From contig OZ024757.1 in assembly GCA_964016885.1 (NCBI GenBank), forward strand, positions 7,130,001 through 7,194,000: a DNA stretch of 64,000 nt, read 5' to 3'. The notes under the pieces are model-generated. The model did no database searches. It saw nothing but the letters and a program-made list of their open reading frames with translations, and had not been told where the DNA came from. Origin of the DNA: Eledone cirrhosa (Eukaryota). Positions 9,551-57,850 of the stretch are shown here, one piece after another. How positions within the stretch are numbered: the first letter of the stretch is position 1; every line of letters begins with the position of its first letter. A program made the position numbers and the translations under genes.

Positions 9551-12130
9551 CTAGCGGAGCTACCCGGCTTCGCTCAGTGTTAAAAAGCTTATTTAGAAAA
9601 GAATAATATTAACATTTTAATCGTTATTTAAAAACTTCTGTAATTTAGTTTCTATTTTTTTAGATTTTAACATTTATCTTTAAATGACTGAATGACTGAC
9701 GAATTTAAAGAAAATTCGTTATAAGAACATTTAATTTGTTTTACTGAAGTGCTTTTGGATACACAATGTTTTTTGTTTTTCCTTCTGGTGCGTACACGAA
9801 TAAATGAGAAGGTTTACCGACGCGTGAGCAAGCCACATACAGCTGTCCATGTGAGAAGCATGGATTTTCTAAATTTAGTCCACACACTTGTAGCGATTGT
9901 CCTTGTGCTTTGTTGATAGTCATTGCAAAGGCGAGTCGCACCAGAAACTGCAAACGTTTGAAATCGAATGGCGTATCTGTTGGAATGATTGGGATGCGTG
10001 GCAAGAGTACATCTTCTCCTTTAAATTTTCCATTTAAAATTGTAGCCTCGATGATATTGTTCATCGTCTTTTTCACTGAAAGTCTGGTACCGTTGCAAAG
10101 TTGTGGTGGATTGATGTTTCGGAGAAGGATGATAGGCACGCCAATTTTCAATGTTAAAATGTGCGGTGGCATGCCTGGCAAATCAAGTGAATTCAAGAAT
10201 TCAATTGGATAATTGATAATTTCGTCTTGATTCATTACAGTATCGATGGACTTATACGTTGTCGCTTCGCCTGGTATTTCGTTTTGAATGCTGAAATTAA
10301 TGGCATTGACATCGGTGTTTTTGGCTGCTAATATAGCACGTACACTGAGCCACTGATGATTTTTGTAATGATGCGCAATATTTGGGAACACTTTGTGAAT
10401 CACTTCGTCTCTGGTTGTCGTGATTCTACAGAAGTTTGTTGGCAATGTGATACATTTTGTGGAATCATCGATTACCATTTTCCCATTCCCAATATCCAGC
10501 AATTGTTTTGTGAAACGTTCAGCGGATGCGTCATTTTGTAGTTGTACACGCATATTGTTTTTTAAAGTTAATTTCTGTACGTGTCGCCATAAAACTGATG
10601 ATTTGAGACATGCATTAAGCTCATCAGCGGGTGTTGATCGCGGTATAACTGGTAGAGTTTGTCGAAAATCACCAGACAATAAAATGAGTGTGCCACCGAA
10701 GAGCTGTTCATTTCCTTTCAAATCTTTTAGCGTATTATTAAGCGCTTCCAATGATTTTTTGTGCGCCATAGTACATTCGCCCCATATAATGATTTTACAT
10801 GATTGGAGTACTTTACCTATACCAGAATTTTTGGTAATATTGCATGTTGGTGTCTCAGCGATTTGCATATTCAATGGCAATTTCAGGGCTGAATGTGCTG
10901 TTCGGCCACCATCTAAAAGAGTTGCCGCAATTCCAGATGATGCGATTGCCAGTGCAATATTATTTTCTGATCGTATAGTTGCCAAAATAAGTGAAATGAG
11001 AAAAGTTTTGCCTGTACCACCGGGCGCATCTATAAAATACAATCCGCCGCTTTGACTTATAATTGCCTGCATAATTTGGTCATATACTATGCGTTGTTCT
11101 GGTAACAATTTGGGAAGATTCGTTTCAACAAATGTACCCAATTCGGCGACATCAAAGTTTGTTTCTCGTTGCAAATCACGATCGAAAATGTCGTTTACAG
11201 ATCGATTCGGCGCAGGCATTCCCAATTGTACCAATGTTTTGTTAGCGATTGCTAAATATATGACCTCAATGGAAACCAATGCTTCATTATACACATTGTG
11301 TGTGAATTGAATATTCATATTTTGATTTGTTGCACGCAAACGATGTAGGATGTCTTCACTCATGTAGTCTTTATATTTTTCCCAAAGATCTTTTGGATTT
11401 GATGGGAAGCACGTTGTCAATATTATTGAGAATAATGTGCGTATTTGCTTTGGTCGAGCAGTATTCGATGCATCAGCGAGTGAAGTGTCCCAATGTCCAT
11501 CATTTTCAAGAAGATTTAATTCTTGGCAAGCTTCACGATAAGTGGCACATACTTGACCGTTTACTGTTCTCAATTCTTGGAATGATGTCGGTCCACGTAT
11601 GTGTCCAGGTCAGGAAAATAAGGACAGACGAAATGAAGATATCAAATTACAGCACTTAGTTAAGGGCTAGCTGAAAAAGAATTCCCTGTAATGGGAGTGG
11701 AAGGGAAGTAATGTGAAACAGACACTATACTAATTCTATTGAAATTATATTAAATTAAAGAGAGAATTTACTAATTCTAATGAAATTATATTAAATTAAA
11801 GAGAGAATACTAATTCTATTGAAATTATCTTTAATTAAAAAAATTTCACACTCGCTCTTTCACTCACTCTTTGTCTATACGTTGATTTCTTTTTCTCCGT
11901 TTATAGCACTCTCTCTTTGTCTATACGTTGCTCTTTCACTCTCTCTTTGTCTATACGTTGATTTCTCTTTCTCCGTTTATAACTTTAGAGACAGTCTAAT
12001 ATAGGGAGTGGTTCAAAGCAGCCAGACTACTCGCTCTTTCACTCTCTGTTTGAATATACGTTGATTTCTCTTTCTCCGTTTAAATCTTTGGACAAACAAA
12101 CAAACATACATTCATTTTTATATATATAGA
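9551..12130 (-). mobile_element. Internally deleted Helitron (2.58 kb) with both termini
   Basis: Minus strand 5' A|TCTATATATATAAAAATGAATGTATGTTTGTTTG; 3' ...ctgagcgaagccgggtagctccgCTAG|T (hairpin plus CTAG); inserted between A and T; carries a Pif1 helicase ORF. Confidence 0.92.
9741..11602 (-). CDS. Helitron RepHel C-terminal part: Pif1-family SF1 helicase, lacking the Rep/HUH domain
   Basis: Open frame from HIRGPTSFQELRTVNG; Walker A DAPGGTGKT, SSGIAATLL, GDFRQTLPV, LCNGTRL, MTINKAQGQSL, FSHGQLYVACSRV; Walker B reads IIWGECTM instead of IIWDE. Confidence 0.88.
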
Positions 12131-13306: not shown

Positions 13307-13472
13307 AAGAATTAATATCTAGTAACATATGTATACAGATGCATATCAATGCTAGCAAATATATAGGCTTTGTCTAGGTAACTTTGTGGTTCAATGCATG
13401 GGGTTGCAGAACAATAATATGAGAGACGTAAAATAAGAAAATTATAAAATTAACTTACTTACTAAAATATCA

Positions 13473-13552
13473 CTTCCAACTAATTAGTTTCTGAAATGGA
13501 ATAAATAAACTTTCCGACGAAAATATAGAGAATCATTTCGTCGTCAGGGAAG
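13473..13552 (-). ncRNA. Type I hammerhead ribozyme motif, family D
   Basis: CUUCC-CUGACGA-c-GAAAUG..CAUUUC-a-GAAA-CUAAUUAG-UU^-GGAAG; stem I CUUCC/GGAAG; palindromic stem III ACUAAUUAGU. Confidence 0.8.
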
Positions 13553-13708
13553 ACTATTCTCAGCTAAGTGTCCAGGCATTCTCAGCTAATTGTCCAGACT
13601 CTGGAAACTTATACAAAAATAATTCAGTAGATAGAAAATAGCAAAGCGTGGACTGGATTCCTAGCCATTGAGAAAATCACTGCCTCTGCGTCGGTGGCTG
13701 AGAATAGT

Positions 13709-13788
13709 CTTCCCTGACGACGAAATGATTCTCAATATTTTCTTCGGAAAGTATATTTATACCATTTCAGAAACTAATTAGTTGGGAG
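13709..13788 (+). ncRNA. Type I hammerhead ribozyme motif, family D
   Basis: CUUCC CUGACGA cGAAAUG..AUAUUUUC(UUCG)GAAAGUAU..CAUUUCa GAAA CUAAUUAG UU^ GGGAG; predicted cut after 13783. Confidence 0.8.
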
Positions 13789-14232
13789 AGAAATTTTAGT
13801 AAGTAAGTTAATTTTATAATTTTCTTATTTTACGTCTCTCATATTATTATTCTGCAACCCCATGCATTGAACCACAAAGTTACTAAGAGAAAAACCTATA
13901 TATTTGCTAGCATTGATATGCATCTGTATGTATACATATGTTACTAAATATTAATTCTTTATAATTATCTCCAAATTATTTGTCGAGCAATATTTTGGCC
14001 ACGACTGCTGCTATGGTAGCAGGCAGGCCACTGTCTTATTAAGAAACCACTTTCAGCTGATTGACCTCGATGTCACGTGATTCATTCTTTTTGAATTTGC
14101 CACCGACGCAGAGGCAGTGATTTTCTCAATGGCTAGGGATTCAGTCCACGCTTTGCTATTTTCTATCCACTGAATTATTTTTGTATAAGTTTCCCGAGTC
14201 CTCGCTTTGCCTGGACACTTAGCTGAGAATAG

Positions 14233-14312
14233 TTTTCCTGACGACGAAATGATTCTTTATATTTTCTTCGGAAAGTATATTTATTCTATTTCAGAAACAA
14301 ATTAGTTGGGAG
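14233..14312 (+). ncRNA. Hammerhead motif family D, second tandem copy (slightly mutated)
   Basis: Core CUGACGA/GAAA intact; stem III reads ACAAAUUAGU (one mismatch); predicted cut after 14307, 524 nt from the previous site. Confidence 0.65.
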
Positions 14313-15676: not shown

Positions 15677-16502
15677 TACATATGTATATATATATACATA
15701 TATACATGTATATATATATACATATATACATATATATGTATATATATACATATATACACATATATACATATTACATATATATATACATATATACATATAT
15801 ATATATATACATATATACATATTACATATATATACATATTACATATATATACATATTGCATTATATATATACATATTACATATATATACATATATACATA
15901 TTACATATATATATATACATTTTACATATATATATATTACATATATATATACATATTACATATATATACATATTACATATATATACATATATACATATAT
16001 ATACATATATACATATTACATATATACATATATACATAATACATATATATATATATATACATATTACATATATATACATATATACATATTACTTTTTTAT
16101 ATATATACATATTACATATATATATATACATATTATATATATATAAAGATATACATATTACATATATATATACATATTACATATGTATATATATACATAT
16201 TACATATATATATACATATATACATATTACATATATATATATACATATATACATATTACATATATATAGATATACATATATACATATACATATAGATAGT
16301 ATTAGTTATACTATTTATGGTTATGTAAACACAAAACCTTAAGCAGTTGTAAGTATTTTACACACACCCTAAATAGTGGTAGGCAGTAATGTATTACTAC
16401 CTTATTACCAGTAAGTTAAGTAGCTCAATGTAAAAACATCAGATGATTTACAGAGCAGTTATATGAAATATATGAATCAAAGAACTGTTCAAAACATTAT
16501 TG

Positions 16503-16549
16503 TGCTTACAGCTGTTTCCTCCAAACCGAGGTTTGGATTCTTCGGAGCA
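16503..16549 (-). ncRNA. Hammerhead variant motif, family B
   Basis: Exact reverse complement of 18359-18405. Confidence 0.7.
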
Positions 16550-16598
16550 ATTTATTAATGCATGGACAGTTATATGACCTCCTTTTCAGCCGAGAACT

Positions 16599-16913
16599 GC
16601 CGAGAACTGCTTCAAAATTAGATATAACTCGCACATCCACTCGTTCAAAAAGCACAGCCTAGCCAACTCCACCTCACTTTCTAGCTACATTCACTATCTA
16701 AAATCTAAAAATAAACCATACACACTCAAATGGGAAGTGATAGGCAGCGCGACCTCGTATAAACCACCTAATAAATTCTGTAACCTCTGTATACTAGAGA
16801 CACACAATATTATCTTCTCCAACCGTAACCTACTTAACAAAAAATCTGAGGTGTTTGCAACTTGCCAGCACCGCCTCAGACATTCCTTCCAAAACTTTAA
16901 GCCCCATATATAG
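16599..16913 (+). pseudogene. C-terminal 104 aa of a Penelope-like GIY-YIG endonuclease (no start codon, absent from the ORF track)
   Basis: My translation: AENCFKIRYNSHIHSFKKHSLANSTSLSSYIHYLKSKNKPYTLKWEVIGSATSYKPPNKFCNLCILETHNIIFSNRNLLNKKSEVFATCQHRLRHSFQNFKPHI*; FKxRYxxH, CxLCxxE, LLN and CxH motifs. Confidence 0.8.
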
Positions 16914-18358
16914 CAATGTCGGACTGGAACCTAACACCACATCTAGCATCAAACACCAGAGACACACCCTATACTACATACCCAACACTAGCTGATCCAT
17001 TATAACACAAACAACGACATCCCTCTGGAACCCTTCGCAGGGAAAATACCCATTTATACCTCTACGGCAGGTGTGACAACATCCACCCACCTGGACGGCG
17101 CTACGCCGCTCTAAGGGTAATTTGAGCATCAATTGATCGGTTGGATGGTGTTGGGCAGAGGAAACACCTTCCTTAGACAGATGTAAAATGTTTTAATCGA
17201 GTAGCGCTGTTGACCAGTAGGACCAGGCCGCTGAGCGCAGTGAGTGAATGCAATGCAACTGCCGTGCGGGTTGTACGTATATGGATGATCTGACGGTCAG
17301 AGAGGGGTCGCGAGGACTGCGACTTGACCTTTGGCCTGCCTGGGGATGATTATCTTTCGACATCCAATGTAGCAAGCGATGACCCGGATCTTACCAGAGA
17401 TCATTGGGTCCTGAAGCAATCCTGCAATCACCGCGCCTGGTCATATGAGCAGACTACAACCATAGAGATCATTAATTTAGAATCCTCGCTCATCATCTAT
17501 AATTTCCATTTGTAGCACCTTAAGATGGGTTAATCCACCCTAATAATAATATGATCACCTTCAGCATAATTTAGTTAAACTACTCTATAGTTAGTACACT
17601 TTATGCTTTAAAAGTCTCTCTTGGAAGGTGCACCTCACCATAGAATTTAGGGTCTATATTGAGACACACTTTAATGGCTAGATATAGAAACCCCAGAGTT
17701 ACCTCCCCGCATGCATTAACTCCCCTTAGCCACACACACACTTCCGGTATTCAATGGCGTCTCTCGAAACGTAACAACCACCTGTATCGAACTAAAGAGC
17801 ACCAGACTACGATCTCTAACTGGATTGTCGTGGATTATGTGAAAGGCATATAATCGAAATATACACTCCCTTGACCATGAAAATACCGAAGTACATGAAT
17901 TACTTGACATCCCTGCGCTGTGCATCTCCAATACTTATAACACTTTTAATGCTTGCACTATCTTTAATGCTTATAATATTTCTCCACACACAGACTATAT
18001 CAATCATATAAAGACTTTGCCACCATATCTACCAACCTAACACTCTTATTTACCTACCTAAGTGCCTCTACCACACATATCTCTCTGCCACACTATATAA
18101 ACAAGACGCACATGCGTGCCACACATATAACATTTGCACTATATAACCACTTATCTTCATGTTGTACTTTAACCTATATCTTTGATTTTTTTGATTGTAC
18201 CTATTAATATAAATGTAATCTCGAAGTGTGTACTGCCACTCTAAATTCTGTAATGAATGTTGACCCACAATGTTTGAATATGTATCAATGTTTGAATATG
18301 TATTGGTATGTCTCTCGGCTGAAAAGGAGGTCATATAACTGTCCATGCATTAATAAAT

Positions 18359-18405
18359 TGCTCCGAAGAATCCAAACCTCGGTTTGGAGGAAACAGCTGT
18401 AAGCA
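18359..18405 (+). ncRNA. Hammerhead variant motif, family B (core CCGAAGA)
   Basis: UGCU CCGAAGA a UCCAAACC uc GGUUUGGA g GAAA CAGCUG UA^ AGCA; stem I UGCU/AGCA, 8-bp stem II, palindromic stem III ACAGCUGU. Confidence 0.7.
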
Positions 18406-18539
18406 CAATAATGTTTTGAACAGTTCTTTGATTCATATATTTCATACATATAGATATACATATTACATATATATATATATACATATATACATATATATAT
18501 ACATATATACAAATTACGTATATATATATACATATATAC

Positions 18540-19426: not shown

Positions 19427-19472
19427 ATTAGCCGACAATGTTTCGTCCTATTAAGGACTCATCAGGGCAATT
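19427..19472 (-). ncRNA. Canonical minimal type I hammerhead ribozyme, family A, in a ~120-bp island (19378-19495)
   Basis: AUUGCC CUGAUGA GUCCU uaau AGGAC GAAAC AUU GUC^ GGC UAAUAAA; all core nucleotides canonical, GUC cleavage triplet. Confidence 0.9.
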
Positions 19473-20599: not shown

Positions 20600-21640
20600 A
20601 AGAATTAATATCTAGTAACATATGTATACAGATGCATATCAATGCTAGCAAATATATAGGCTTTGTCTAGGTAACTTTGTGGTTCAATGCATGGGGTTGC
20701 AGAACAATAATATGAGAGACGTAAAAGAAGAAAATTATAAAATTAACTTACTTACTAAAATATCACTTCCAACTAATTAGTTTCTGAAATGGAATAAATA
20801 AACTTTCCGACGAAAATATAGAGAATCATTTCGTCGTCAGGGAAGACTATTCTCAGCTAAGTGTCCAGGCATTCTCAGCTAAGTGTCCAGACTCTGGAAA
20901 AATAATTCAGTAGATAGAAAATAGCAAAGCGTGGACTGGATTCCTAGCCATTGAGAAAATCACTGCCTCTGCGTCGGTGGCTGAGAATAGTCTTCCCTGA
21001 CGACGAAATGATTCTCAATATTTTCTTCGGAAAGTATATTTATACCATTTCAGAAACTAATTAGTTGGGAGTGAAATTTTAGTAAGTAAGTTAATTTTAT
21101 AATTTTCTTATTTTACGTCTCTCATATTATTGTTCTGCAACCCCATGCATTGAACCACAAAGTTACTAAGAGAAAACCTATATATTTGCTAGCATTGATA
21201 TGCATCTGTATGTATACATATGTTACTAGATATTAATTCTTTATAATTATCTCCAAATTATTTGTCGAGCAATATTTTGGCCACGACTTCTGCTATGGTA
21301 GAAGGCAGGCCACTGCCTTATTAAGAAACCACTTTCAGCTGATTGACCTCGATGTCACGTGATTCATTCTTTTTGAATTTGCCACCGACGCAGAGGCAGT
21401 GATTTTCTCAATGGCTAGGGATTCAGTCCACGCTTTGCTATTTTCTATCCACTGAATTATTTTTGTATAAGTTTCCCGAGTCCTCGCTTTGCCTGGACAC
21501 TTAGCTGAGAATAGATTTCCTGACGACGAAATGATTCTTTATATTTTCTTCGGAAAGTATATTTATTCTATTTCAGAAACAAATTAGTTGGGAGTGAAAT
21601 TTTAGTAAGTAAGTTAATTTTATAATTTTCTTATTTTACA

Positions 21641-24646: not shown

Positions 24647-24692
24647 ATTAGCCGACAATGTTTCGTCCTATTAAGGACTCATCAGGGCAATT
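24647..24692 (-). ncRNA. Hammerhead ribozyme family A, copy 2
   Basis: Identical motif to 19427-19472, 5220 bp downstream. Confidence 0.9.
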
Positions 24693-27430: not shown

Positions 27431-28483
27431 AAGAATTAATATCTAGTAACATATATACATACAGATGCATATCAATGCTAGCAAATATATAGGTTTTGTC
27501 TTAGTAACTTTGTGGTTCAATGCATGGGGTTGCAGAACAATAATATGAGAGACGTAAAATAAGAAAATTATAAAATTAACTTACTTACTTAAATTTCACT
27601 CCCAACTAATTAGTTTCTGAAATGGAATAAATATACTTTCCGACGAAAATATAGAGAATCATTTCGTCGTCAGGGAAGACTATTCTCAGCTAAGTGTCCA
27701 GGCATTCTCAACTAAGTGTCCAGACTCTGGAAACTTATACAAAAATAATTCAGTGGAGAGAATATAGCAAAGCGTGGACTGGATTCCTAGCCATTGAGAA
27801 AATCACTGCCTCTGCGTCGGTGGCTGAGAATAGTATTCCCTGACGACGAAATGATTCTCTATATTTTCTTCGGAAAGTATATTTATTCCATTTCAGAAAC
27901 TAATTAGTTGGGAGTGAAATTTTAGTAAGTAAGTTAATTTTATAATTTTCTTATTTTACGTCTCTCATATTATTGTTCTGCAACCCCATGCATTGAACCA
28001 CAAAGTTACTAAGACAAAGCCTATATATTTGCTAGCATTGATATGCATCTGTATGTATACATATGTTACTAGATATTAATTCTTTATAATTATCTCCAAA
28101 TTATTTGTCGAGCAATATTTGGCCACGACTGCAGCTATGGTAGCAGGCAGGCCGCTGTCTTATTAAGAAACCACTTTCCACTGATTGACCTCGATGTCAC
28201 GTGATTCATTCTTTTTCAATTTGCCACCGACGCAGAGGCAGTGATTTTCTCAATGGCTACGAATTCAGTCCACGCTTTGCTCTTTTCTATCCACTGAATT
28301 ATTTTTGTATAAGTTTCCAGAGTCCTCGCTTTGCCTGGACACTTAGCTGAGAATAGTCTTCCCTGACAACTTAATGATTCTTTATATTTTCTTCGGAAAG
28401 TATATTTATTCTATTTCAGAAACAAATTAGTTGGGAGTGAAATTTTAGTAGGTAAGTTAATTTTATAATTTTCTTATTTTACG

Positions 28484-29196: not shown

Positions 29197-31076
29197 TACA
29201 TATTACGTATATATATACATATATACATGTATATATATATATACATATATACATATTACATATATATACATATTACATATATATACATATTACATTATAT
29301 ATATACATATTACATATATACATATATACATATTACATATTATATATATATATATACATATTACACACATATATACATACATATTACATATATATATATA
29401 CATATATACATATTACATATATATACATATATACATATTACATATATATATATATACATATATACAGATTACATATATACATATATATATATACATATTA
29501 CATATATATACATATATATATATACATATTACATATATGTATACATATATATATATATATATATACATATATACATATGTATATATATATACATATATAC
29601 ATGTATATATATATACATATATACATATATATATATATATAAATATATATATATACATATATACACATATATAGATATTACATATATATATACATATATA
29701 CATATATATATATACATATATACATATTACATATATATACATATTACATATATATACATATTACATTGTATATATACATATTACATATATATACATATAT
29801 ACATATTACATATATATATATACATATTACATATATATACATATTACATATATATATACATATTACATATATATACATATACATATTACATATATATACA
29901 TATATACATATATATACATATATATATTACATATATACATATAAACATATTACATATATATATATATACATATTACATATATATATATATATATATATAC
30001 ATATTACTTTTTTATATATATACATATTACATATATATATATACATATTATATATATATAAAGATATACATATTACATATATATATATACATATTACATA
30101 TATATATATATACATATTACATATATATATATGTATATACACATTACACATATATATATATATATACATACATATTACATATATATATACATATATACAT
30201 ATTACATATATATATATACATATATACATATTACATATATATATATACATATATACATATATATATACATATATACATATTACGTATATATATACATATA
30301 TACATATATATATATACATACATACATATATATATATACATATATACATATATATATACAAATATACATATTACATATATATACATATTACATATATATA
30401 CATATTACATTATATATATACATATTACATATATATACAAATATACATATTACATATATATATATATATACATATTACATATATATACATATTACATATA
30501 TATATACATATTACATACATATACATATACATATTACATATATATACATATATACATATATATACATATATACATATTACATATATATACATATATACAT
30601 ATTACATATATATACATATACATATTACATATATATACATATACATATTACATATATATACATATATACATATATATACATATATACATATTACATATAT
30701 ACATATATATATATTATATATATATATACATATTACATATATATATATATATATATATATACATATTACTTTTTTATATATATACATATTACATATATAT
30801 ATACATATTATATATATATATACATATTACATATATATATACATATTACATATATATATATATACATATTACATATATATATATATACGTGTTACACATA
30901 TATATATATATATACATATATATTACATATATATATACATATATATATATTACATATATATATATATATATACATATATACATATTACATATATGTGTAT
31001 ACATATATACATATTAAATATATACATATATATATATATATATATACATATTACATATATATATATATATACATTT

Positions 31077-34000
31077 AGTATTAAGGGTACTATTTATGGT
31101 TATGTATACAATAAAACCTTTAATGGTAATATATTATATATACACAAACCCTAAATAGTGAGAGATAGTCATTAATTACTATCCTATTACCAGTAAGATA
31201 AATAGCTCAATGTAATAACATCAGTTGTTTTACAGAGCAGTTATATAGAGATTACAGTAATCAAAGTTCAGTTTAAGTCATTTATTTGCTTACAATTGTT
31301 TCCTCCAAACCGAGGTTTAGATTCTTCGGAGCAACTATTTACTGATCTATAACATACTTGACCTCCTTTTCAACCCAAGAGACACATAAACCATATGCGC
31401 ATATTGATCAACAGTGGGGTGACATTCATCAAATGATATAGCATGGCAATTTACATATAAAGGTTACAGGATAAAAATAAAATAAAAACAAGAGTGAAAA
31501 TAAGAGTGAAAATAAAGATAAACATGAAGCATTGGCAGTCTATGAAGATAAAGCAAGAGGAAAGCTTAGAGTAGTCAGTGTATGAAACAATCTCCCGTGT
31601 AGCATGCACGCGTGTCTTATTTATACATGATTAGAGTGCGTCAGAATGATATTTGCAGGGTCAGGCAGTTGAAGCAGGCAATCGATCTTATTATGTAGGC
31701 TGAATTATTAAGTCATTTATTCTCATACATCTGTATGATATACAGTCTCGGATGCGGGGAAACACCAAAATATCAAAAACTTTCAACATACTATAAACCT
31801 TATTGTATCGTGGGCAAGGCCGTACCACTGTCCCTGCTCACACCACCACTCACATAATCCATGAGACGCAATATATATAGAGAACACGCGTCTATCGTAT
31901 AATTCGCGGTGGTTCAGCATATAGTCAAGCTATAAACCGTATCCAGTCGGTTCTTAATTAATATATCATGCTGTCCAGATTCCGGAAGTGCCTGAATGAC
32001 TAAGGGGAATTAATGCGTAAGGGGAGGTAACTAGCTAGTTATCTTAGTTACATTACTATCCTAAACTACATTAATGGTGATTCAAATACGTGCCTATCAT
32101 GTGAAGTTATAACTAATATCTAGAGTATGTTACCCATTTATAGGTTAGAAAGTTGTCCATTAAGAAGTACAAGGGTGTATATATTAGGATGATTACCATC
32201 CATTAATTAAGGGGTGTCATATCTGAACGTTCTATAAGAGGAGTCAGACTCTCAAGTCACTGCTCCATGCAAATGTAATATAACAGTAGGACCTGGTATG
32301 GTCCCACTATTATATATGCCCCCGGTAGGCTCCGGGTCATTGGATGCCTGCATCTCCAGTAAATCTTCGGTATGGTCCGGATATCCAATCTCTCATATAA
32401 ATGCACTAGTCTGGCCATCAAGCAATAGACAACCCCCGTCTCAAATATAAATCAATTATGTATCACATCTACAAGCTAGAGTGGAGTCTATTAATAGGTA
32501 CTAATGGAGTTCACATCAAGATGATTACGTGCATAATTCATTGAACTGATCGCTTACAGTATATATTCACAGAACAATACGATTATCTATCTAATCATCA
32601 ATCTATCTCTTGGTGGTAATCCATGCACAGGACTATGCTATCGCAACCAGTACCGTGTCCCCAATTTATACTAATCTTATATTTGTGCAATGCAGAATAA
32701 GTAGTCCACGGTCGAGATATCAGTATTAGAGGTACAAGGGGGTATTCCCAGGGTAGGTGGTACTAAAATGCTGTCAGTATTATCTTTAGAGATTAGTATA
32801 AATTGGGGACACGGTACTGGTTGCGATAGCATAGTCCTGTGCATGGATTAGCACCAAGAGATAGATTGATGATTAGATAGATAATCGTATTGTTCTGTGA
32901 ATATATACTGTAAGCGATCAGTTCAATGAATTATGCACGTAATCATCTTGATGTGAACTCCTTTAGTACCTATTAATAGACTCCACTCTAGCTTGTAGAT
33001 GTGATACATAATTGATTTATATTTGAGACGGGGGTTGTCTATTGCTTGATGGCCAGACTAGTGCATCTATATGAGAGATTGGATCTCCGGACCATACCGA
33101 AGATTTACTGGAGATGCAGGCATCCAATGACCCGGAGCCTACCGGGGGCATATATAATAGTGGGACCATACCAGGTCCTACTGTTATATTACATTTGCAT
33201 GGAGCAGTGACTTGAGAGTCTGACTCCTCTTATAGAACGTTCAGATATGACACCCCTTAATTAATGGATGGTAATCATCCTAATATATACACCCTTGTAC
33301 TTCTTAATGGACAACTCTCTAACCTATAAATGGGTAACATACTCTAGATATTAGTTATAACTTCACATGATAGGCACGTATTTGAATCACCATTTGAATC
33401 ACCATTAATGTAGTTTAGGATAGTAATGTAACTAAGATAACTAGCTAGTTACCTCCCCTTACGCATTAATTCCCCTTAGTCATTCAGGCACTTCCGGAAT
33501 CTGGACAGCATGATATATTAATTAAGAACCGACTGGATACGGTTTATAGCTTGACTATATGCTGAACCACCGCGAATTATACGATAGACGCGTGTTCTCT
33601 ATATATATTGCGTCTCATGGATTATGTGAGTGGTGGTGTGAGCAGGGACAGTGGTACGGCCTTGCCCACGATACAATAAGGTTTATAGTATGTTGAAAGT
33701 TTTTGATATTTTGGTGTTTCTCCGCATCCGAGACTGTATATCATACAGATGTATGAGAATAAATGACTTAATAATTCAGCCTACACAATAAGATCGATTG
33801 CCTGATTCAACTGCCTTACCCTGCAAATATCATTCTGACGCACGCTAATCATGTATAAATAAGACACGCGTGCATGCTACACGGGAGATTGTTTCATACA
33901 CTGACTACTCTAAGCTTTCCTCTTGATTTATCTTCATAGAATACCAACGCTTCGTGTTTATCTTTATTTTCACTCTTATGTTCACTCTTGTTTTTATTTT

Positions 34001-34236
34001 ATTTTTATCCTGTAACCTTTATATGTAAATTGCCATGCTATATCATTTGATGAATGTCACCCCACTGTTGATCAATATGCGCATATGGTTTATGTGTCTC
34101 TTGGGTTGAAAAGGAGGTCAAGTATGTTATAGATCAGTAAATAGTTGCTCCGAAGAATCCAAACCTCGGTTTGGAGGAAACAATTGTAAGCAAATAAATG
34201 ACTTAAACTGAACTTTGATTACTGTAATCTCTATAT
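31077..34236. mobile_element. Penelope-like non-coding remnant forming a ~3 kb palindrome (arms 31244-32677 and 32790-34236, 112-bp spacer)
   Basis: Arms are reverse complements with only scattered substitutions and one ~12-bp duplication; homologous but diverged relative to 16297-16590 and ~17000-18447; family B hammerheads at 31286-31334 (-) and 34145-34193 (+). Confidence 0.9.
34145..34193 (+). ncRNA. Hammerhead variant motif, family B (second subfamily)
   Basis: UUGCU CCGAAGA a UCCAAACC uc GGUUUGGA g GAAA CAAUUG UA^ AGCAA followed by AAUAAA; stem III palindrome ACAAUUGU. Confidence 0.7.
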
Positions 34237-34519
34237 ATATACATATATACATATATATATAGATATACATATTACATATATATATACATATATACATATA
34301 TATATACATATATACATATATATATACATATATACATATTACGTATATATATATACATATATACATATATATATATATACATATATACTTATATATATAT
34401 ATACATATATACACATATATACATATTACATATATATATATATATACATATATACATATATATATATACATATATTAAGAGAGTAAAACAAAGAAGCCTT
34501 CAATACATCAAAAGTCTTT

Positions 34520-34565
34520 ATTAGCCGACAATGTTTCGTCCTATTAAGGACTCATCAGGGCAATT
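34520..34565 (-). ncRNA. Hammerhead ribozyme family A, copy 3
   Basis: Identical motif to 19427-19472. Confidence 0.9.
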
Positions 34566-34712: not shown

Positions 34713-37700
34713 ATCATCATCATCATCACCGTTTTACGTCCGTTCTTCCACGCTAGCATGGGTTAGACGGGTTGTCCTGTTGTGGGCAGTGTCTGGTCGG
34801 CTGACCATGCCTTGCTCATACAGGAACTGATCTGGCTTGATTTCTACAGCTGGATGCCCTTCCTAACACCAACCTCATTTACAGTGAGTGCTGGGTACTT
34901 TTTCGTGGCGCCTACACGTCCACTTTACAGTGTGGGCTGGGTGCTTTTTTGCCGTGGCACCTCCACGACCACCTTGCGGTGGGAGGAGTGGGGGCATATT
35001 GTTTATATGCTTCAGCATGTACCCATGGGAGGTCGGGTACCCTGTATTACTGCGTGACGCCAGAAGTCACGGTCGTGTGTCATTGACTTTGAGAGGTGTA
35101 GTTGGGTAAGGTCGGCTTTTATCACCTCATCCCAAGTCATCTTGGGTCTCCCCACTCCGCGGTTTCCATCAACTTCTAGTGCTCTGCACCTTTTTATGCA
35201 GCTGTCATCCTTCATACGCATCACATGTCCATACCAGCGTAACCGCCTCTCCTGCACGCAGCATTTGATTCCTCTTATGCTCAGTCTCTCTCTCAATTCC
35301 TTTATGCTTTGTCGTTCACGTATATTACTGTTACACATCCATCGGCGCATGCAGGCTTCGTTTCTCTCTAATCTACGTAAGTCTTCCACCTTCAGCGCCC
35401 AGGTCTCACTACCATGCAACATCGCTGTTCGGATACACGCATCATACAGTCTGCCTTTCATTCTGAGGGAGAAGCCTTTTGCAGCTAGCAGTGGTAGTAG
35501 TTCCCTAAACTACTTCCATCCCGTTCTTACCCTAGTTATTGTACTTTCTGAGCACCCACCTCCGTTGCTAATTCGGTCACCTAGGTAGCAGAAGCTGTCT
35601 ACTGTTTCTACAGGGCCCTCCCAGAGATTGGTGGTACTTGTTTCCTGTGGCTGTTTGCTTGCTGTTTCAGCACAGCTGCTGCATGTGAATCCTACATTCT
35701 TAATTAAGCTTCCTGAGATCCCGCTACATCTCTTGTGTACCCATTGTTTGCATTTGGGGCAGAGAATGGAGTTCCTACCTACACCTTTCCTACATACTGA
35801 GCAAGGCCATTTCCCTGAGGGGATCTGGGTTCTGTTTTCTCGTCTACTTACAAGGACCTTAGTCTTTGTCATGTTGACTTTGAGGCCCCTTCTCTCTAGT
35901 CCCTGCTTCCAGGTTTGGAATTTATTCTCTAGTTCTACCATAGATTCAGCTATGAGTGCGAGGTCATCAGCATACAGGAGTTCCCATGGGCACCCGGTTT
36001 TAAACTCCTCCGTTATTGCCTGCAGGACTATGATGAACAGGAGAGGGCTAAGAACAGAGCCCTGGTGGACCCCAACCTGTACGCTAAATTCCTCGCTATA
36101 CTCATTGCTAATCCTAACTTTGCTGACTGCTCCCCTATACATGGCTTGTACCGCTTTCACAAGCCATTCATCTACTCCTAGTTTTCTAAGAGCCCACCAG
36201 ATTACTGCACGTGGAACTCTGTCAAAGGCTTTCTCAAGGTCGACAAATGCCAAGTAGAGTGGCTTACTTTTAGCTAGGTACTTTTCCTGTAATTGCCTCA
36301 CAAGGAAGAGGGCATCAGTGGTGCCTTTCCCTGGTACAAACCCAAATTGCATCTCGTCTATATTTACCCGGTCCCTAATCAGCTGTGCTATAACTCTTTC
36401 TGTTACTTTCATGACCTGGTCCAACAACTTTATACCTCTATAGTTTCCTCTATCTAGTGCATCGCCTTTACCTTTGTAGCAGTTGACAATGATGCTACTG
36501 CACCAATCTTTTGGTATGGCCCCTTCTAGTATTACCTGGTTAACGATACGTGTGGTTATAGTGTGACCTACAGACCCAGATGCCTTCAGCATCTCGGCAG
36601 CTATACCCGATGGACCGGTTGCCTTCCCTATCTTCATATCTCTGATTGCCTTACTTACTACGCTGCCGCTGACTTGTACTGCTGGTCCCTCTATAGGGTC
36701 TACGTGGGGTAGGGTCTCTTCTTCCCATGCATTCTCCTCATTTAGTAATCTATCATAATGACTCTTCCATGCATCTTTCTTCTCAACACTTGTGAGGGCA
36801 AGCTCACCTTTATCATTCCGGATACACTTCTCTCCAATGACATCACAACTATCTCTGACACACTGCCTCGCAATCTTGAATACCTCCTGTTTCTGGTCCT
36901 CACGTTGTAAAACATGCTTGAATTTTCTATCCTCTGCTTCCCTCCTAGCTAAGTATACTTGTCGCCTAGCTTCCCTCTTGGTCTCTATGTAATGTACCCT
37001 GCTCCCCCTGTTCTTCCATTCTTTCCATGCCTGTCTCTTGGCCTTGACTGCTTCATCTACCTTATTGTTCCACCACCAAGTCACTCTCCTCCTGCTTGAG
37101 GTCTTACTCCAGCCACAAACCTCATCCGTTGCCTCTAGTAAGTTATTTTTTAGGAACTCCCAGTTCTCTTCTACGTTAAATGTCTTTATCTGTTCTTCTT
37201 TACTGTCGTAGGCGTTGAGTAAAATATCTTTAAGTCTGTTACTGGTTGAGGGGACTTTCAGCTTCCAGATCTTTCTTCTCCAGGTTGGCCTCTGTTTCCG
37301 GGTTCGTCTAGTTCTGACCGTGAGGTCGCTGACAACTAAGCTATGTTGGGATGTACATTCCTCACTAGGGAAGGCTTTTGTGTTTGCGACCGTCCATCTG
37401 TCACGTCCTCTGATGAGGATAAAATCTAACTGACTAGAGTGCTCCCCTGATCTATAGGTGATCAGGTGGTTGTCGGGTTTTTTAAAGTTGTGTTACATAT
37501 CGACATGTCATTGGCGTCGCAGAATTCTAGAAGTCTGAATCCTTCCTCATTCCTTGTGCCAACTCCATGGCCTCCATGTACTCTATTGAAGCCGTCGCAG
37601 TGTTTACCTACGTGTCCGTTAAAATCTCCTGCAATGATTAGGAAGTCCTTGTCGTCTGTTAGAGCAGTAGTGTGTATTAGGGACTCGTAAAACCTATCCT

Positions 37701-38681
37701 TAAGTTCGTCTGGCAGCCCCGATTGGGGTGCGTAAGCTGATATTATTGTGGTGATTGTCTTATTTAGGACTAGTCTGAGTTTAATGATTCTTGCATTTAC
37801 CCTGTCCACTGAGATTACTTTATCTACCCACTTGTCAGCTAATAGTATACCTACACCACCCATCCCATCGTCATTTCCCACCCAGAAAAATTTGTAGCAC
37901 TGGCTTTTTCCTACAAGGACTCTAGCAGACCCTCCTCTCCATCTAGTCTCTTGCACACAGCATACATCAACTTCCTTTCGCTCTAGCATTTCTACGATTT
38001 CTCCTGCTCTTCCTTTCATTGAGCCTACATTGATGGTACCAACTCGGAGTTTTGGGCATTTGTCGACACTCGTAGGGGAGGGTCTCTGGGTTGGCGCTTC
38101 ACGTGGGTGCTTGGTAGCTCGCAGATTCATATTTCATCTATTGATTCAGAGTTGCTCGTGTATTCCCAGCTCATCCATCCATAAATTGCGGGCTAGAAGA
38201 ACAGTGGTGGTGGGGTAATGGCAGGGTGTGTTGGGATGCGCCAGAGGGGGAGAGAGTTAGTTAGGCAGGTAGTAGCAGCAGTGGAAATGGCATGCTAGGT
38301 TTGATTGGTCGAATAGACTATGGTGGTGTGTGGGGGTGGGGGGGGGGGGGAAATTGTGAGGTAGGAAGTGAGGGTCGCATGGTAAATAACAGAGAGAAAC
38401 AATAGGATTAGAATACCGCATGGTAAATATCCAAGTTAATACTACATCAGTAAAATTAACGTCATGAAAAACTACTAAGAGAAACCCTCGAAAATTTATT
38501 GCTAATACAGCAGGAAAAATGTATCGCTAATACAGCAGGGAACATCATAATATTAACAACAATATGTAGGCTAAAATACCTTCGTAGATTAGATGGATGG
38601 CTGGGAAAATTGGAATCAGCTCTAGTGATACATTTTAGCAGAGAAGAATGGGAAAGTGTCTTATCTCTTCAATATTTTCTG
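34713..38681 (-). mobile_element. Essentially full-length RTE-clade LINE (~4 kb)
   Basis: 5' UTR ~38131-38681; single APE-RT ORF 38130-35012; 3' UTR ends in ..cccatgctagcgtggaagaacggacgtaaaacggt(gat)n. Confidence 0.95.
35012..38130 (-). pseudogene. RTE APE endonuclease-reverse transcriptase ORF with one frameshift (~37478) and one stop (35510-35512)
   Basis: GTINVG, VQETRW, SAYAPQ, GDFNGH; DLEKAFD, GVHQGSVLSPLLF, LLYADDL; Cys-rich CSVC..CPKC..HKRC..CSSC; RRLRWYGHV..GRPKMTW. Confidence 0.93.
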
Positions 38682-40483: not shown

Positions 40484-41312
40484 GACGTAAAATAAGAGAA
40501 TTATAAAATTAGCTTACTTCCTAAAATATCACTTCCTCTCATCTAAGTATCCAGGCAAAGCGGGGACTCTGGAAAGTTATTCAAAAATAATACTGTGGAT
40601 AGAAAATAGCAAAGCGTGGACTGAATTCCTCGCCATTGGGAAAATCCTTTATAATTTTCTTATTTTACGTCGCTCATATTATTGTTCTGCAACCCCATGC
40701 ATTGAACCACAAATTTACTAAGACAAAACCTATATATTTGCTAGCATTGATATGCATCTGTATGTATATATGTTACTGGATATTAATTCTTTATAATTAT
40801 CTACAAATTATTTGTCGAGCAATATTGGCCATGACTGCTGCTATGGTAGCAGGCAGGCCGCTGTCTTATTAGCAAACCACTTTCCACTGATTGACCTCGT
40901 TGTCACGTGATTCATTCTTTTTGAATTTGCCACCGACGCAGAGGCAGTGATTTTCTCAATGGCTAGGAATTCAGTCCACGCTTTGCTATTTTCTATCCAC
41001 TGAATTATTTTTTAATAAGTTTCCAGTGTCCACGCTTTGCCTGGATACTTAGATGAGAATAGACTTCCCTGACGACGGAATGCTTCTTCGTATTTTCTTA
41101 GGAAAATATATTTATTCCATTCCAGAAACTAATTAGTTGGAAGTGATATTTTAGTAAGTAAGTTAATTTTATAATTTTCTTATTTTACGTCTCTCATATT
41201 ATTGTTCTGCAACCCCATGCATTGAACCACAAAGTTACTAAGACAAAACGTATATATTTGCTAGCATTGATATGCATCTGTATGTATATATATTACTAGA
41301 TATTAATTCTTT
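40479..41312. mobile_element. Family D element block 4 (more diverged; deleted inverted part plus ~1.3 monomers)
   Basis: tttataattttcttattttacgtc recurs at ~40648 and ~41168 (about 520 bp apart). Confidence 0.8.
41063..41144 (+). ncRNA. Type I hammerhead ribozyme motif, family D (diverged copy)
   Basis: ACUUCC CUGACGA c GGAAUG..UAUUUUCU ua GGAAAAUA..CAUUCC a GAAA CUAAUUAG UU^ GGAAGU; perfect 6-bp stem I; compensatory change in stem II. Confidence 0.85.
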
Positions 41313-50833: not shown

Positions 50834-52490
50834 TCATCAATGGTGCTACTTCGGAGCAGTGGAAAACTGCCAGTGTCATTCCCCTGTTCAAAAAGGGCAA
50901 CCGCATGTCACCTGTCAACTATGACCAGTGAGTCTTACTAGCTGTATGGCCAAACTGATGGAATCCTGTGTCAGAGAAACACTTTGGAACTTCTGGAGCT
51001 CTCACAGCCTCATCCGGCCCTCACAGTTTGGATTTATCCCTAACTCCAGCTGCTGTGATCAGCTTATCGAGTTCCTTGAGGACATCACCCGGATCACTGA
51101 CAGTGGCTCATGGGTGGATGTTGTTTACCTTTACTTTGCTAAGGCTTTTAATTCTGTGCCACACAAAAGACTTATGGCAAAACTCTCTGCAATGGGTGTG
51201 AGGGATGATCTTTTCGACTGGCTGAAATCCTTCATTCTCAGCCGAAAGGAAGTAGTCACGGTTCTAGGACAGCATTCTTCACCATATGAGATGTCATCTG
51301 GTGTACCACAGGGATCTGTTCTTGGTTCTCTTTTGTTTGTGGCATATATTAATGACATAGATGCCAACTTACAGAATGCCACGGTACTAAAATATGCAGA
51401 TGACATCAAGCTGTACCTTGAAATCAAAAGGACTGGTCCTGAAATTTACAACTCTTTCCTACAATCAGACCTGGACACAATGCAGCAATGGATCACAGAC
51501 TGGCAACTGAAGCTGGCTGTGGACAAGTGTACCACCATGCATTTTGGAAGGAAAAATCCAGCGTCCACATACTCCCTCCACAACACTGACATCAAAAAGT
51601 CCTCTTGTGAACGTGACCTGGGCATTACTGTCAGCAACGATTTGCGTTGGACAAAGCATGTCTCTAAGATTGTCAAGAAGGCCGAGGGTGTCTTAGCATC
51701 ACTCAGCAAGACCTTTGTTAGCCGCTCTCCAGCCATCTATTTAAAACTGTATACAGCTATGGTACGACCGCACTTGGAATTCGCATCATCAGTCTGGAAC
51801 CCCTATCTTGCTCGGAACATTGACCTCCTGGAAACTGTTCAGAGACGTGCAACCAAGCGCTTACCCTCCATCAGACACCTACCATACTCTGAACGCCTTG
51901 CTTCCCTGGGCATGGATTCATTGAAGCTCTGACGTCTGGCAATGGACTTGGTGAATACCCACAAAGTTTTTAACCATCTCGCCAACTGCAACCCTGAGCG
52001 CCTCTTTGATCTCCATGTGTCTAACACACGTGGACATGCCTACAAGATCAGAAAACAGCACAGATCCCATGACTTTCGTAGACATTTTTTGACGCTCAGA
52101 ATTGCTGAAGCATGGAACAAACTGCCTGCATCAATTGTTAGCTGCCGAGACACTGCATCCTTTAAGACACTCATGCTTCCCGAAATACGCCAAAACTACA
52201 CCTGATGTACCCCTTCCATACACATGCACACATGTGTGTATCATGACTCGTGCACTGTTCATTTTACTGATGTTTGTGCATTGCCCTATGTACTGTACAT
52301 GCACTTTTTTGATGAGTTGTGGTGCACCTGGGCACTGTACACAATATTTTGTTATTATTATATCATGACTCATACACTGTTCATTTTCCTGACATTTGTA
52401 CATTATTCTATGTACTATACATGCACCTTTGATGAGTTGTAGTGCACCTGAGCACTGTACACAATAATTTCATTATTATTATTATTATTA
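50834..52490 (+). mobile_element. 5'-truncated CR1-group LINE (RT domain, 3' UTR with internal duplication, (TTA)n tail)
   Basis: WKTASVIPLFKKG, SQFGF, FAKAFNSVPH, SGVPQGSVLG, KYADDIKL, ERDLGI, RPHLEF, LETVQRRATK; in-frame stops at ~50922 and ~51930. Confidence 0.9.
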
Positions 52491-52827: not shown

Positions 52828-53705
52828 CGAGGTGGGTCAGAAAAGTTCCAGGACTGATGTCACAAAAGATTTATTTCAAACCCAAACTTCACACTAAGAG
52901 TTTTCTCCTTCAAAGTAATCCCCCTGGAGTCTAATGCACTTTTCCATCCTTTTCTGCCAAGCTTGCATGCACTCCTGGAAGGATTCTTCCGGGACCCTCC
53001 GCAGTTCCATCGTCACGGCCATTTTGATGTCATCCACATCTTCAAAACGGGTCCCCTCCGGGTCGTACTCGAAGATCCATGACTCATCACTGGTGATGAC
53101 TGTCCCTAGCAAGTCTGGTTCAGTTTCAAGACGCTCGAGGATGTCCTGGCACACTTGCATGCTGCGACCCTTCTGGTCATCGTTCAACAGTTTTGGCACC
53201 ATCTTTGCGCAGACTTTCCGCATGTCCAAATCTTCAGTAAGAATCTTCCAGACGCTGTCCCGATTCATGCCCAGCTCATTAGCCATCAGTCGAACAGTCA
53301 GCCGACGATCGCTACGCACCATCTGCCTGACGCGCTCAATGTTGATCTCAGTCCTGCTTGTTGAGGACCTTCTGCTCCTGGGGTCCTCTTCCACGTCGTC
53401 GCATCCTTCTTTAAACCTCTTGCACCACTCAAAAACACGTGAGCGTGACATCGTCTAATCTCCATACACTTGCTGCAGCAATCCCAGTGTTTCTGACGGA
53501 GTTTTCAAGTTTGTTCGTTGCTCTGTGCTCATTGCTTGACGACCTGAAACAGAGGACATGTATATAAAATTATGAAGAAAAAAGTTTGATCATTGCAGAG
53601 AGCTAAGATTACTGTTACATACTCCAGGGGGATTACTTTGAAGGAGATAACTCTTGAAATAAATCTTTTGTGACATCAGTCCTGGAACTTTTCTGACACA
53701 CCTCT
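52828..53705 (-). mobile_element. mariner transposon, internally deleted
   Basis: TA target duplication; ~50-bp TIR cgaggtgggtcagaaaagttccaggactgatgtcacaaaagatttatttcaa; ORF with HTH region, KMVPKLL and ITSDESWIFEYDPE fused directly to GTRFEDV (most of the catalytic domain deleted). Confidence 0.92.

Positions 53706-56704: not shown

Positions 56705-57850
<1,146 letters not shown>

Follow-up and report, generated by a model that had tools for sequence, protein, structure and literature searches.

The 64-kb stretch of Eledone cirrhosa DNA analysed here (64,000 nucleotides of contig OZ024757.1; hereafter, the window) contains a hammerhead motif that carries C instead of the consensus U at core position 4 and that, judged by its sequence, is a real, structurally selected hammerhead variant. 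The motif is a type I hammerhead in the terminal repeat of a Hydra-clade Penelope-like element, and sequence and folding models make it moderately probable that it is a slow ribozyme, assisted by dimerization and possibly by protein, that processes tandem transcripts. The U4C substitution, a mismatch at positions 10.1/11.1 and a dimer-type palindromic stem III are already known in kind; new here is that C4 has become fixed throughout a large lineage of recent amplification and turns up again in a second family.

Searching the entire window with the 47-mer, mismatches allowed, recovered four copies of the motif and no others. The subfamily A copy at 18359..18405 on the forward strand (47 nt, core CCGAAGA) is identical (0 differences) to one at 16503..16549 on the reverse strand, in the inverted arm of the subfamily A insertion. 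The other two belong to subfamily B: one on the forward strand at 34146..34192 (2 differences, loop III AAUU, predicted cut after 34188) and one in the inverted arm of the subfamily B insertion, at 31287..31333 on the reverse strand (3 differences from the 47-mer), in which one additional C-to-U change produces a U.G pair in stem II. The preliminary description had counted the same four copies, with two start positions (34145 and 31286) off by one; because the four represent only two insertions, the window offers one comparison, not four.

In the subfamily A motif, all on the forward strand, proximal stem I (UGCU/AGCA) joins 18359-62 to 18402-05. The core CCGAAGA lies at 18363-69 with C4 at 18364, stem II (7 bp above a basal A.G mismatch, capped by a CUCG loop) occupies 18370-89, G12–A14 (GAA) follows at 18390-92, and palindromic stem III at 18393-400 leads to a predicted cut after 18401 (GUA). 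The motif exceeds 47 nt, because a covarying distal stem I extends it to about 18337-18425: the extended, interrupted stem I (18337..18425) pairs 18337-42 with 18420-25 and 18347-52 with 18409-14, with a predicted fold z of -2.67. Stem I closes the 5′ and 3′ ends of a three-helix junction, as in type I hammerheads, and stem III is predicted to be stable in the dimer only. The core CCGAAGA, and with it C3, G5, A6, G8, A9, G12, A13, A14, A15.1–U16.1 and H17, is present in all four copies. Two features depart from the strict hammerhead consensus: C4 replaces U4, and N10.1–N11.1, paired in the consensus, is A.G in the window.

Comparison of the two insertions bore out the claims that the motif is almost invariant and that its main change is a compensated one. 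Subfamilies A and B are identical at 45/47 motif positions, against 32/45 and 24/40 in the adjacent flanks (56/85 together; Fisher p about 7e-5). Stem III is ACAGCUGU in the first pair (18359, 16503) and ACAAUUGU in the second (34146, 31287), a double substitution after which each form is still a full 8-bp self-duplex. The parents had been described as clearly diverged around the motif; this holds for the flanks, but A and B are sister subfamilies that diverge strongly in the 3′ UTR only.

Both parents are Hydra-clade Penelope-like elements, in agreement with the Penelope parentage first proposed, the placement resting on protein motifs, not on a tree. The subfamily A insertion (16292-18446) lies in a TA microsatellite and combines a 5′-truncated arm with an inverted one. 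The former (16605..18446, forward strand; 99.6% identical to the unit at locus L031) retains the 3′ part of the endonuclease, the 3′ UTR and the pLTR; only the last ~100 GIY-YIG endonuclease codons remain (16605-16913, stop at 16911-13), and its 3′ end lies in the TA microsatellite 45–47 nt past the predicted cut. The inverted arm (16292..16595, reverse strand) consists of the pLTR and a ~165-nt optional tail, and stops about 211 nt beyond the predicted cut. The subfamily B insertion (31075..34237), also in a TA microsatellite, comprises two inverted 5′-truncated arms (3′ UTR and pLTR) that meet near 32790, and is 93–97% identical to a 4,697-bp tandem unit at locus L066. Genome searches with the repeat ends returned 40/40 scored matches at 100% identity for subfamily A and 41 at 99–100% for subfamily B, some of them in direct tandems with units of 4,201 bp (A) and 4,697 bp (B). 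Over the first 2.8 kb of the unit the two subfamilies are 83% identical in DNA, and over 590 residues their proteins are 84% identical.

One A unit (L031) encodes an intact 832-aa reverse transcriptase–endonuclease frame with YRDD and a C-terminal YVG...Y..H domain, and in the B unit examined this frame is interrupted by a frameshift. Searching the element protein against Pfam and PDB gave no informative match, and the order of reverse transcriptase and GIY-YIG-type domain was judged by eye against the description of Craig et al. 2021. That source (PMC8557442) gives RWK, DKT, a CxCX5C linker and CxxC/CxH around the endonuclease E and N as Hydra-clade features. RWR and HADKT occur in both A and B (DKT replacing DKG; the K of RWK is R here), and the A frame has the linker motif (CNCRANRTC) and CxxC and CxH flanking the conserved E and N (CNLC..E...N...CQH). 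Hydra-clade insertion behaviour was likewise found: (TA)n targets, partial tandems and inverted 5′-truncated arms. The full 832-aa frame is kept in most of the 150 best-scoring subfamily A copies, which indicates that the lineage is young; among 100 A copies, insertions had 3′ ends at +47 or +211 after the predicted cut.

In several direct tandems, both repeats share the same rare core mutation (C2:328474395/328478584, C2:377467748/377472100, C4:377567822/377571968, C7:23417127/23421044, C5:84732501/84737338), which suggests a single template repeat, through a template jump or circular RNA.

Elsewhere in the window, a repeat family with four copies in nested inverted arms (13367-14277, 20660-21559, 27493-28402 and 40537-41249) contains CUGACGA and GAAA-like boxes, and the type I hammerhead scan of the window did not return it. 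The reverse strand further contains a translated 622-aa frame (9741-11609), which we take to resemble the PIF1-type helicase of a Helitron, and, at 35510-38133, 50925-51932, 52894-53454 and 56705-57850, features recognized by eye from translations: LINE-type endonuclease/reverse transcriptase frames, a mariner-like transposase remnant and a 381-aa tandem C2H2 zinc-finger frame.

Genome-wide, the C4 pattern matched 7,752 times, compared with 86 for a reversed-pattern control, so the motif is not a product of chance. The U4 version of the same pattern matched 564 times (control, 98), and these matches are other families, chance matches and decayed copies. For a comparison of decay, we used a pattern in which the 3′ arm of stem II was fixed. 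This returned 209 non-C4 copies, 63 of the first 100 listed being U4, and 165 non-G5 copies, 80 of the first 100 listed being G5A; scaled from those first 100, both states number about 132 copies. The equal counts are the symmetric outcome of decay at one CpG. Because U4 ‘revertants’ are no commoner than G5A, C4 is fixed, and no U4 copy has founded a subfamily in the long-stem lineage; a U4 sister subfamily within that lineage was looked for in the genome pattern scans and none was found. The U4C core noted initially is therefore a natural deviation shared by the whole lineage as well as by all four window copies. Given that all 26 Hydra hammerhead rows in the published supplement that we used have U4 (Craig et al. 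2021, PMC8557442), the simplest reading is that C4 is derived. A scan of metagenomes with a loose C4 pattern gave at least 119 stretches, which we took for chance matches by their record type.

Relaxing the pattern at N7 and H17, with N7 other than A, gave 4,977 matches (control, 1,494) and further related subfamilies. Across the diverged subfamilies N7 is A, U or G, H17 is A, C or U, and loop II is free (CUCG, CUAG, GAAA, GAGA, AUUC and UUCC); stem II also shows an A-U to G-C swap among the relaxed-pattern subfamilies. The variable sites fall where hammerheads tolerate variation. Identity of the proteins linked to the diverged motifs drops from about 90% to 65–80%; tentatively, the linked endonuclease may be about 40% identical in some subfamilies, although the linkage of fragments L319, L327 and L329 is uncertain, and L329 clusters with the second family in the endonuclease tree.

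We assessed covariation, which the preliminary description had proposed seeking in a larger sample, on 20 real representative copies, 10 of the 30 cluster representatives having been dropped by eye (junction-truncated, duplicated or carrying insertions). With the extended stem I included in the structure, 82.8% of 513 cells pair and 12/26 pairs are altered on both sides. Shuffled alignments average 78.4% paired and 7.2 double-changed pairs, and slid partners 29–42%, controls that are generous in that related rows can beat shuffles and the structure was derived from one row. Core invariance in this alignment is circular, as the rows were chosen by core pattern. Both sides change in 4/6 pairs of distal stem I and in 2/4 pairs of stem III; stems I and II and the stem III palindrome covary. 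The five recurrent loop III types, AGCU, AAUU, GAUU, AGUU and GAUC (142, 86, 22, 11 and 3 counts in the fetched loci, a biased sample), each give a full 8-bp self-duplex (-3.4 to -11.1 kcal/mol), and it is plausible that the G.U forms are intermediates, in the series AAUU–AGUU–AGCU and AAUU–GAUU–GAUC.

The base of stem II behaves differently from the A-G pair that had been suggested, and we rejected that candidate: positions 10.1/11.1 are variable and mostly mismatched, paired in 8/20 representatives and unpaired in 12/20, with A.G, C.A, C.U, C.C and U-A among their states. In older subfamilies, 19/81 cells at 10.1–10.3 depart from the subfamily majority, compared with 1/81 at their partners and 59/1,620 in the flanks (counts from copies that are not independent), and these departures break the base of stem II. 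The published Hydra rows likewise include 15/26 with a mismatch at 10.1/11.1 (14 U.U, 1 U.C; PMC8557442). Variability in the three bases that follow A9 is about sixfold that of the flanks, with multi-base changes (loci L316, L318 and L314 and genome match lists), and these bases often differ between neighbouring copies that resemble the arms of one insertion; either a DNA mutation hot spot or relaxed constraint may be responsible.

A second Hydra-type family, whose stem II measures 4 bp and whose endonuclease is about 41–46% identical, has C4 in 35/51 matches and U4 in 16/51 (loci L524-L543, L293, L299, L301 and L306). Its U4 copies share flanks of their own and, in the endonuclease tree, fall outside a 99/94 clade that contains the C4 copies. 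This arrangement implies two origins, or one origin plus reversion, in a tree whose deeper part is poorly resolved (fragments from the same genome plus relatives; 5/19 branches starred).

In ViennaRNA predictions, monomers gave stem III a probability of 0.0. A 91-nt subfamily A homodimer was predicted to form a double hammerhead (stem III 0.92–0.99, stem I 0.53), and the subfamily B dimer lacked one (stem III 0.0). A misfold that pairs U2.1-C3-C4 with G11.1-G12-A13 reached 0.98 in the B monomer and 0.5 in the A dimer, and RNAalifold on the 20 rows returned no hammerhead consensus, pairing the near-invariant GGA of the stem II 3′ arm with U2.1-C3-C4 instead. The predicted B fold, the misfolds and the RNAalifold result would count against our preferred explanation, as would the stacking of two deviations, C4 and an unpaired 10.1/11.1 in 12/20 representatives. 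The Rfam model Hammerhead_1 (RF00163) did not detect the motif in a 196-nt stretch at E up to 10. The same model gives 31.7 bits, short of its gathering score (34), to three canonical type I hammerheads located at other places in the window. These are identical to one another (CUGAUGA core, a G-C pair closing the base of stem II; 19430-19469, 24650-24689 and 34523-34562, reverse strand) and sit in ~107-bp fragments within TA repeats; they form a separate U4 family and a convenient control.

As a genomic proxy for cleavage, we looked for an excess of 5′ junctions at +1 after the predicted cut, tallied by hand in the first 100 of 182, 180 and 370 matches (for two of the lists, the first 30 rows were confirmed by script). 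For subfamilies A/C, 10/95 listed rows lie at +1 (9 insertions; 5 internal deletions dropped), and a snap-back hot spot at +7/+10 is bigger (14 and 8 rows). By contrast, 0/100 listed rows lie at +1 for B/E, with 7 rows at -1, and 1/100 for D/H/I. In 100 of the 150 frame-bearing A copies, two main junctions and one inverted arm fit +1, two of them with microhomology. Because the A/C signal was not replicated in B/E or D/H/I, we do not take the junction pile-up as evidence of cleavage. Four contig sets from sequencing runs, aligned to 701 bases, were uninformative as to RNA ends.

In the explanation that we prefer, a tandem transcript would bring two terminal repeats together, their 8-nt palindromes would form an intermolecular stem III and each core would cut the site of the other copy, yielding unit-length RNA; the predicted cut after GUA (18401) would thus occur mainly when two copies pair through stem III. 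Both C4 and the basal mismatch of stem II would slow cleavage, and the element's own protein may aid folding, by analogy with an anole element. Slow cutting would be affordable because the mapped insertions end 45–47 or about 211 nt downstream, so that reverse transcription starts on RNA that is uncut there. The same insertion ends, and the uncut template that they imply, also suit a hammerhead of little or no catalytic activity, retained because its shape serves, for example, dimerization or protein binding, in which C4 drifted to fixation once fast cutting was unimportant, a reading that we regard as possible but doubtful. In its favour, ribozyme-dead anole RNA inserts normally in vitro and no RNA reads are described as ending at the site (PMC11167929), every single substitution made in the CUGA turn when another hammerhead was scanned by mutation left activity low (PMC9901934), the base of stem II is often broken, the junction signal was not replicated, and the presence of C4 in two separate families is as expected of a near-neutral change. 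Yet G5, A6, G8, A9, G12–A14 and an H17 other than G persist in subfamilies with linked proteins about 65–80% identical (possibly about 40% in the endonuclease domain), a constancy that is weaker than it appears because the rows were pattern-selected, and N7 and H17 vary as in active hammerheads. It is also conceivable, although we think it unlikely, that C4 is a selected brake: by weakening the uridine turn, with U2.1-C3-C4 paired to the GGA of the stem II 3′ arm or to G11.1-G12-A13, it would keep the ribozyme inactive, preserving the RNA as a reverse-transcription template until a switch by dimerization or protein, a device adopted in two Hydra-type families.

Whether dimerization is needed at all bears on a further alternative, namely that the motif cuts as a monomer whose weak 2-bp stem III is rescued by a contact between the long interrupted stem I and loop II, or by the element's protein, with the palindrome incidental. 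The distal stem I is indeed predicted and covarying, the anole motif is protein-assisted (PMC11167929), and one amplified subfamily has a weak G.U self-duplex only (-3.4 kcal/mol), but the self-complementarity of 5/5 recurrent loop III types, a freely variable loop II that does not suggest a fixed loop contact and the stem III probability of 0.0 in the predicted monomer make it improbable. We consider it most improbable that the high identity between A and B reflects only the shared ancestry of two close subfamilies, with no selection on the motif. The window contains just two insertions and their coding parts are 83–84% alike, as that account would have it; however, the contrast of 45/47 with 56/85, compensatory changes in three helices and the same anatomy in far more diverged subfamilies oppose it, and the flank comparison, the covariation and the diverged subfamilies together largely refute it.

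The retention of hammerheads by Penelope-like elements calls for an explanation, since insertion did without cutting in the one in vitro system (PMC11167929). The lineage described here pairs a usually activity-lowering core change with a covarying dimer palindrome in many intact, near-identical copies. The natural U4/C4 sister subfamilies of the second family would be matched constructs for distinguishing selection for slow cutting, selection for shape alone, or neither. The finding reveals no new ribozyme class or mechanism; it does show that, within a single animal genome, thousands of motifs escape Rfam and descriptors restricted to U4. We did not find a report of a C4 Penelope hammerhead in the literature, although the alignments of Lunse 2017 and the supplements of Cervera 2014 may contain C4 families.

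Dimer hammerheads with a palindromic stem III are established in Penelope repeats (PMC4209133; review PMC6765202), where they cut weakly, as dimers (Cervera and de la Pena 2014, PMC4209133). The present motif resembles these minimal metazoan forms in its long stem II, short stem I, palindromic stem III and dimer model, and in having inverted copies close together and high copy heterogeneity; the core change reported there is U3-A8, not C4, and the conserved G10.1–C11.1 pair and bulge that they possess are both absent here. With the published Hydra-clade hammerheads (PMC8557442) it shares a type I fold in the 3′ repeat, an AC–palindrome–GU stem III, a short proximal stem I, (TA)n targets and a frequent mismatch at 10.1/11.1. 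Unlike them as described there, it has C4 fixed rather than U4, an even, 8-nt stem III palindrome, a stem II of 7–8 bp and a long interrupted distal stem I, in units of 4.2–4.7 kb rather than generally <3 kb. The +47/+211 3′ ends of the A copies match the two-start ‘tail’ pattern of the anole element, for which uncut RNA is given as the main template and the hammerhead as cutting only with protein (PMC11167929). As for the substitution itself, a viroid U4C variant was infectious even though its activity in vitro was much reduced (Perreault 2011, PMC3088659, citing Ambros and Flores 1998), and a 2026 virome survey (PMC13481778) includes CYGANGA hammerheads in which position 4 is C or U; this tolerance supports the reading of the present motif as a hammerhead variant. 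In those systems (PMC3088659, PMC13481778) the same change is found as single variants or as a minority state, whereas here it is fixed through a lineage of thousands of copies and many intact elements, in combination with a weak stem III and an unpaired base of stem II.
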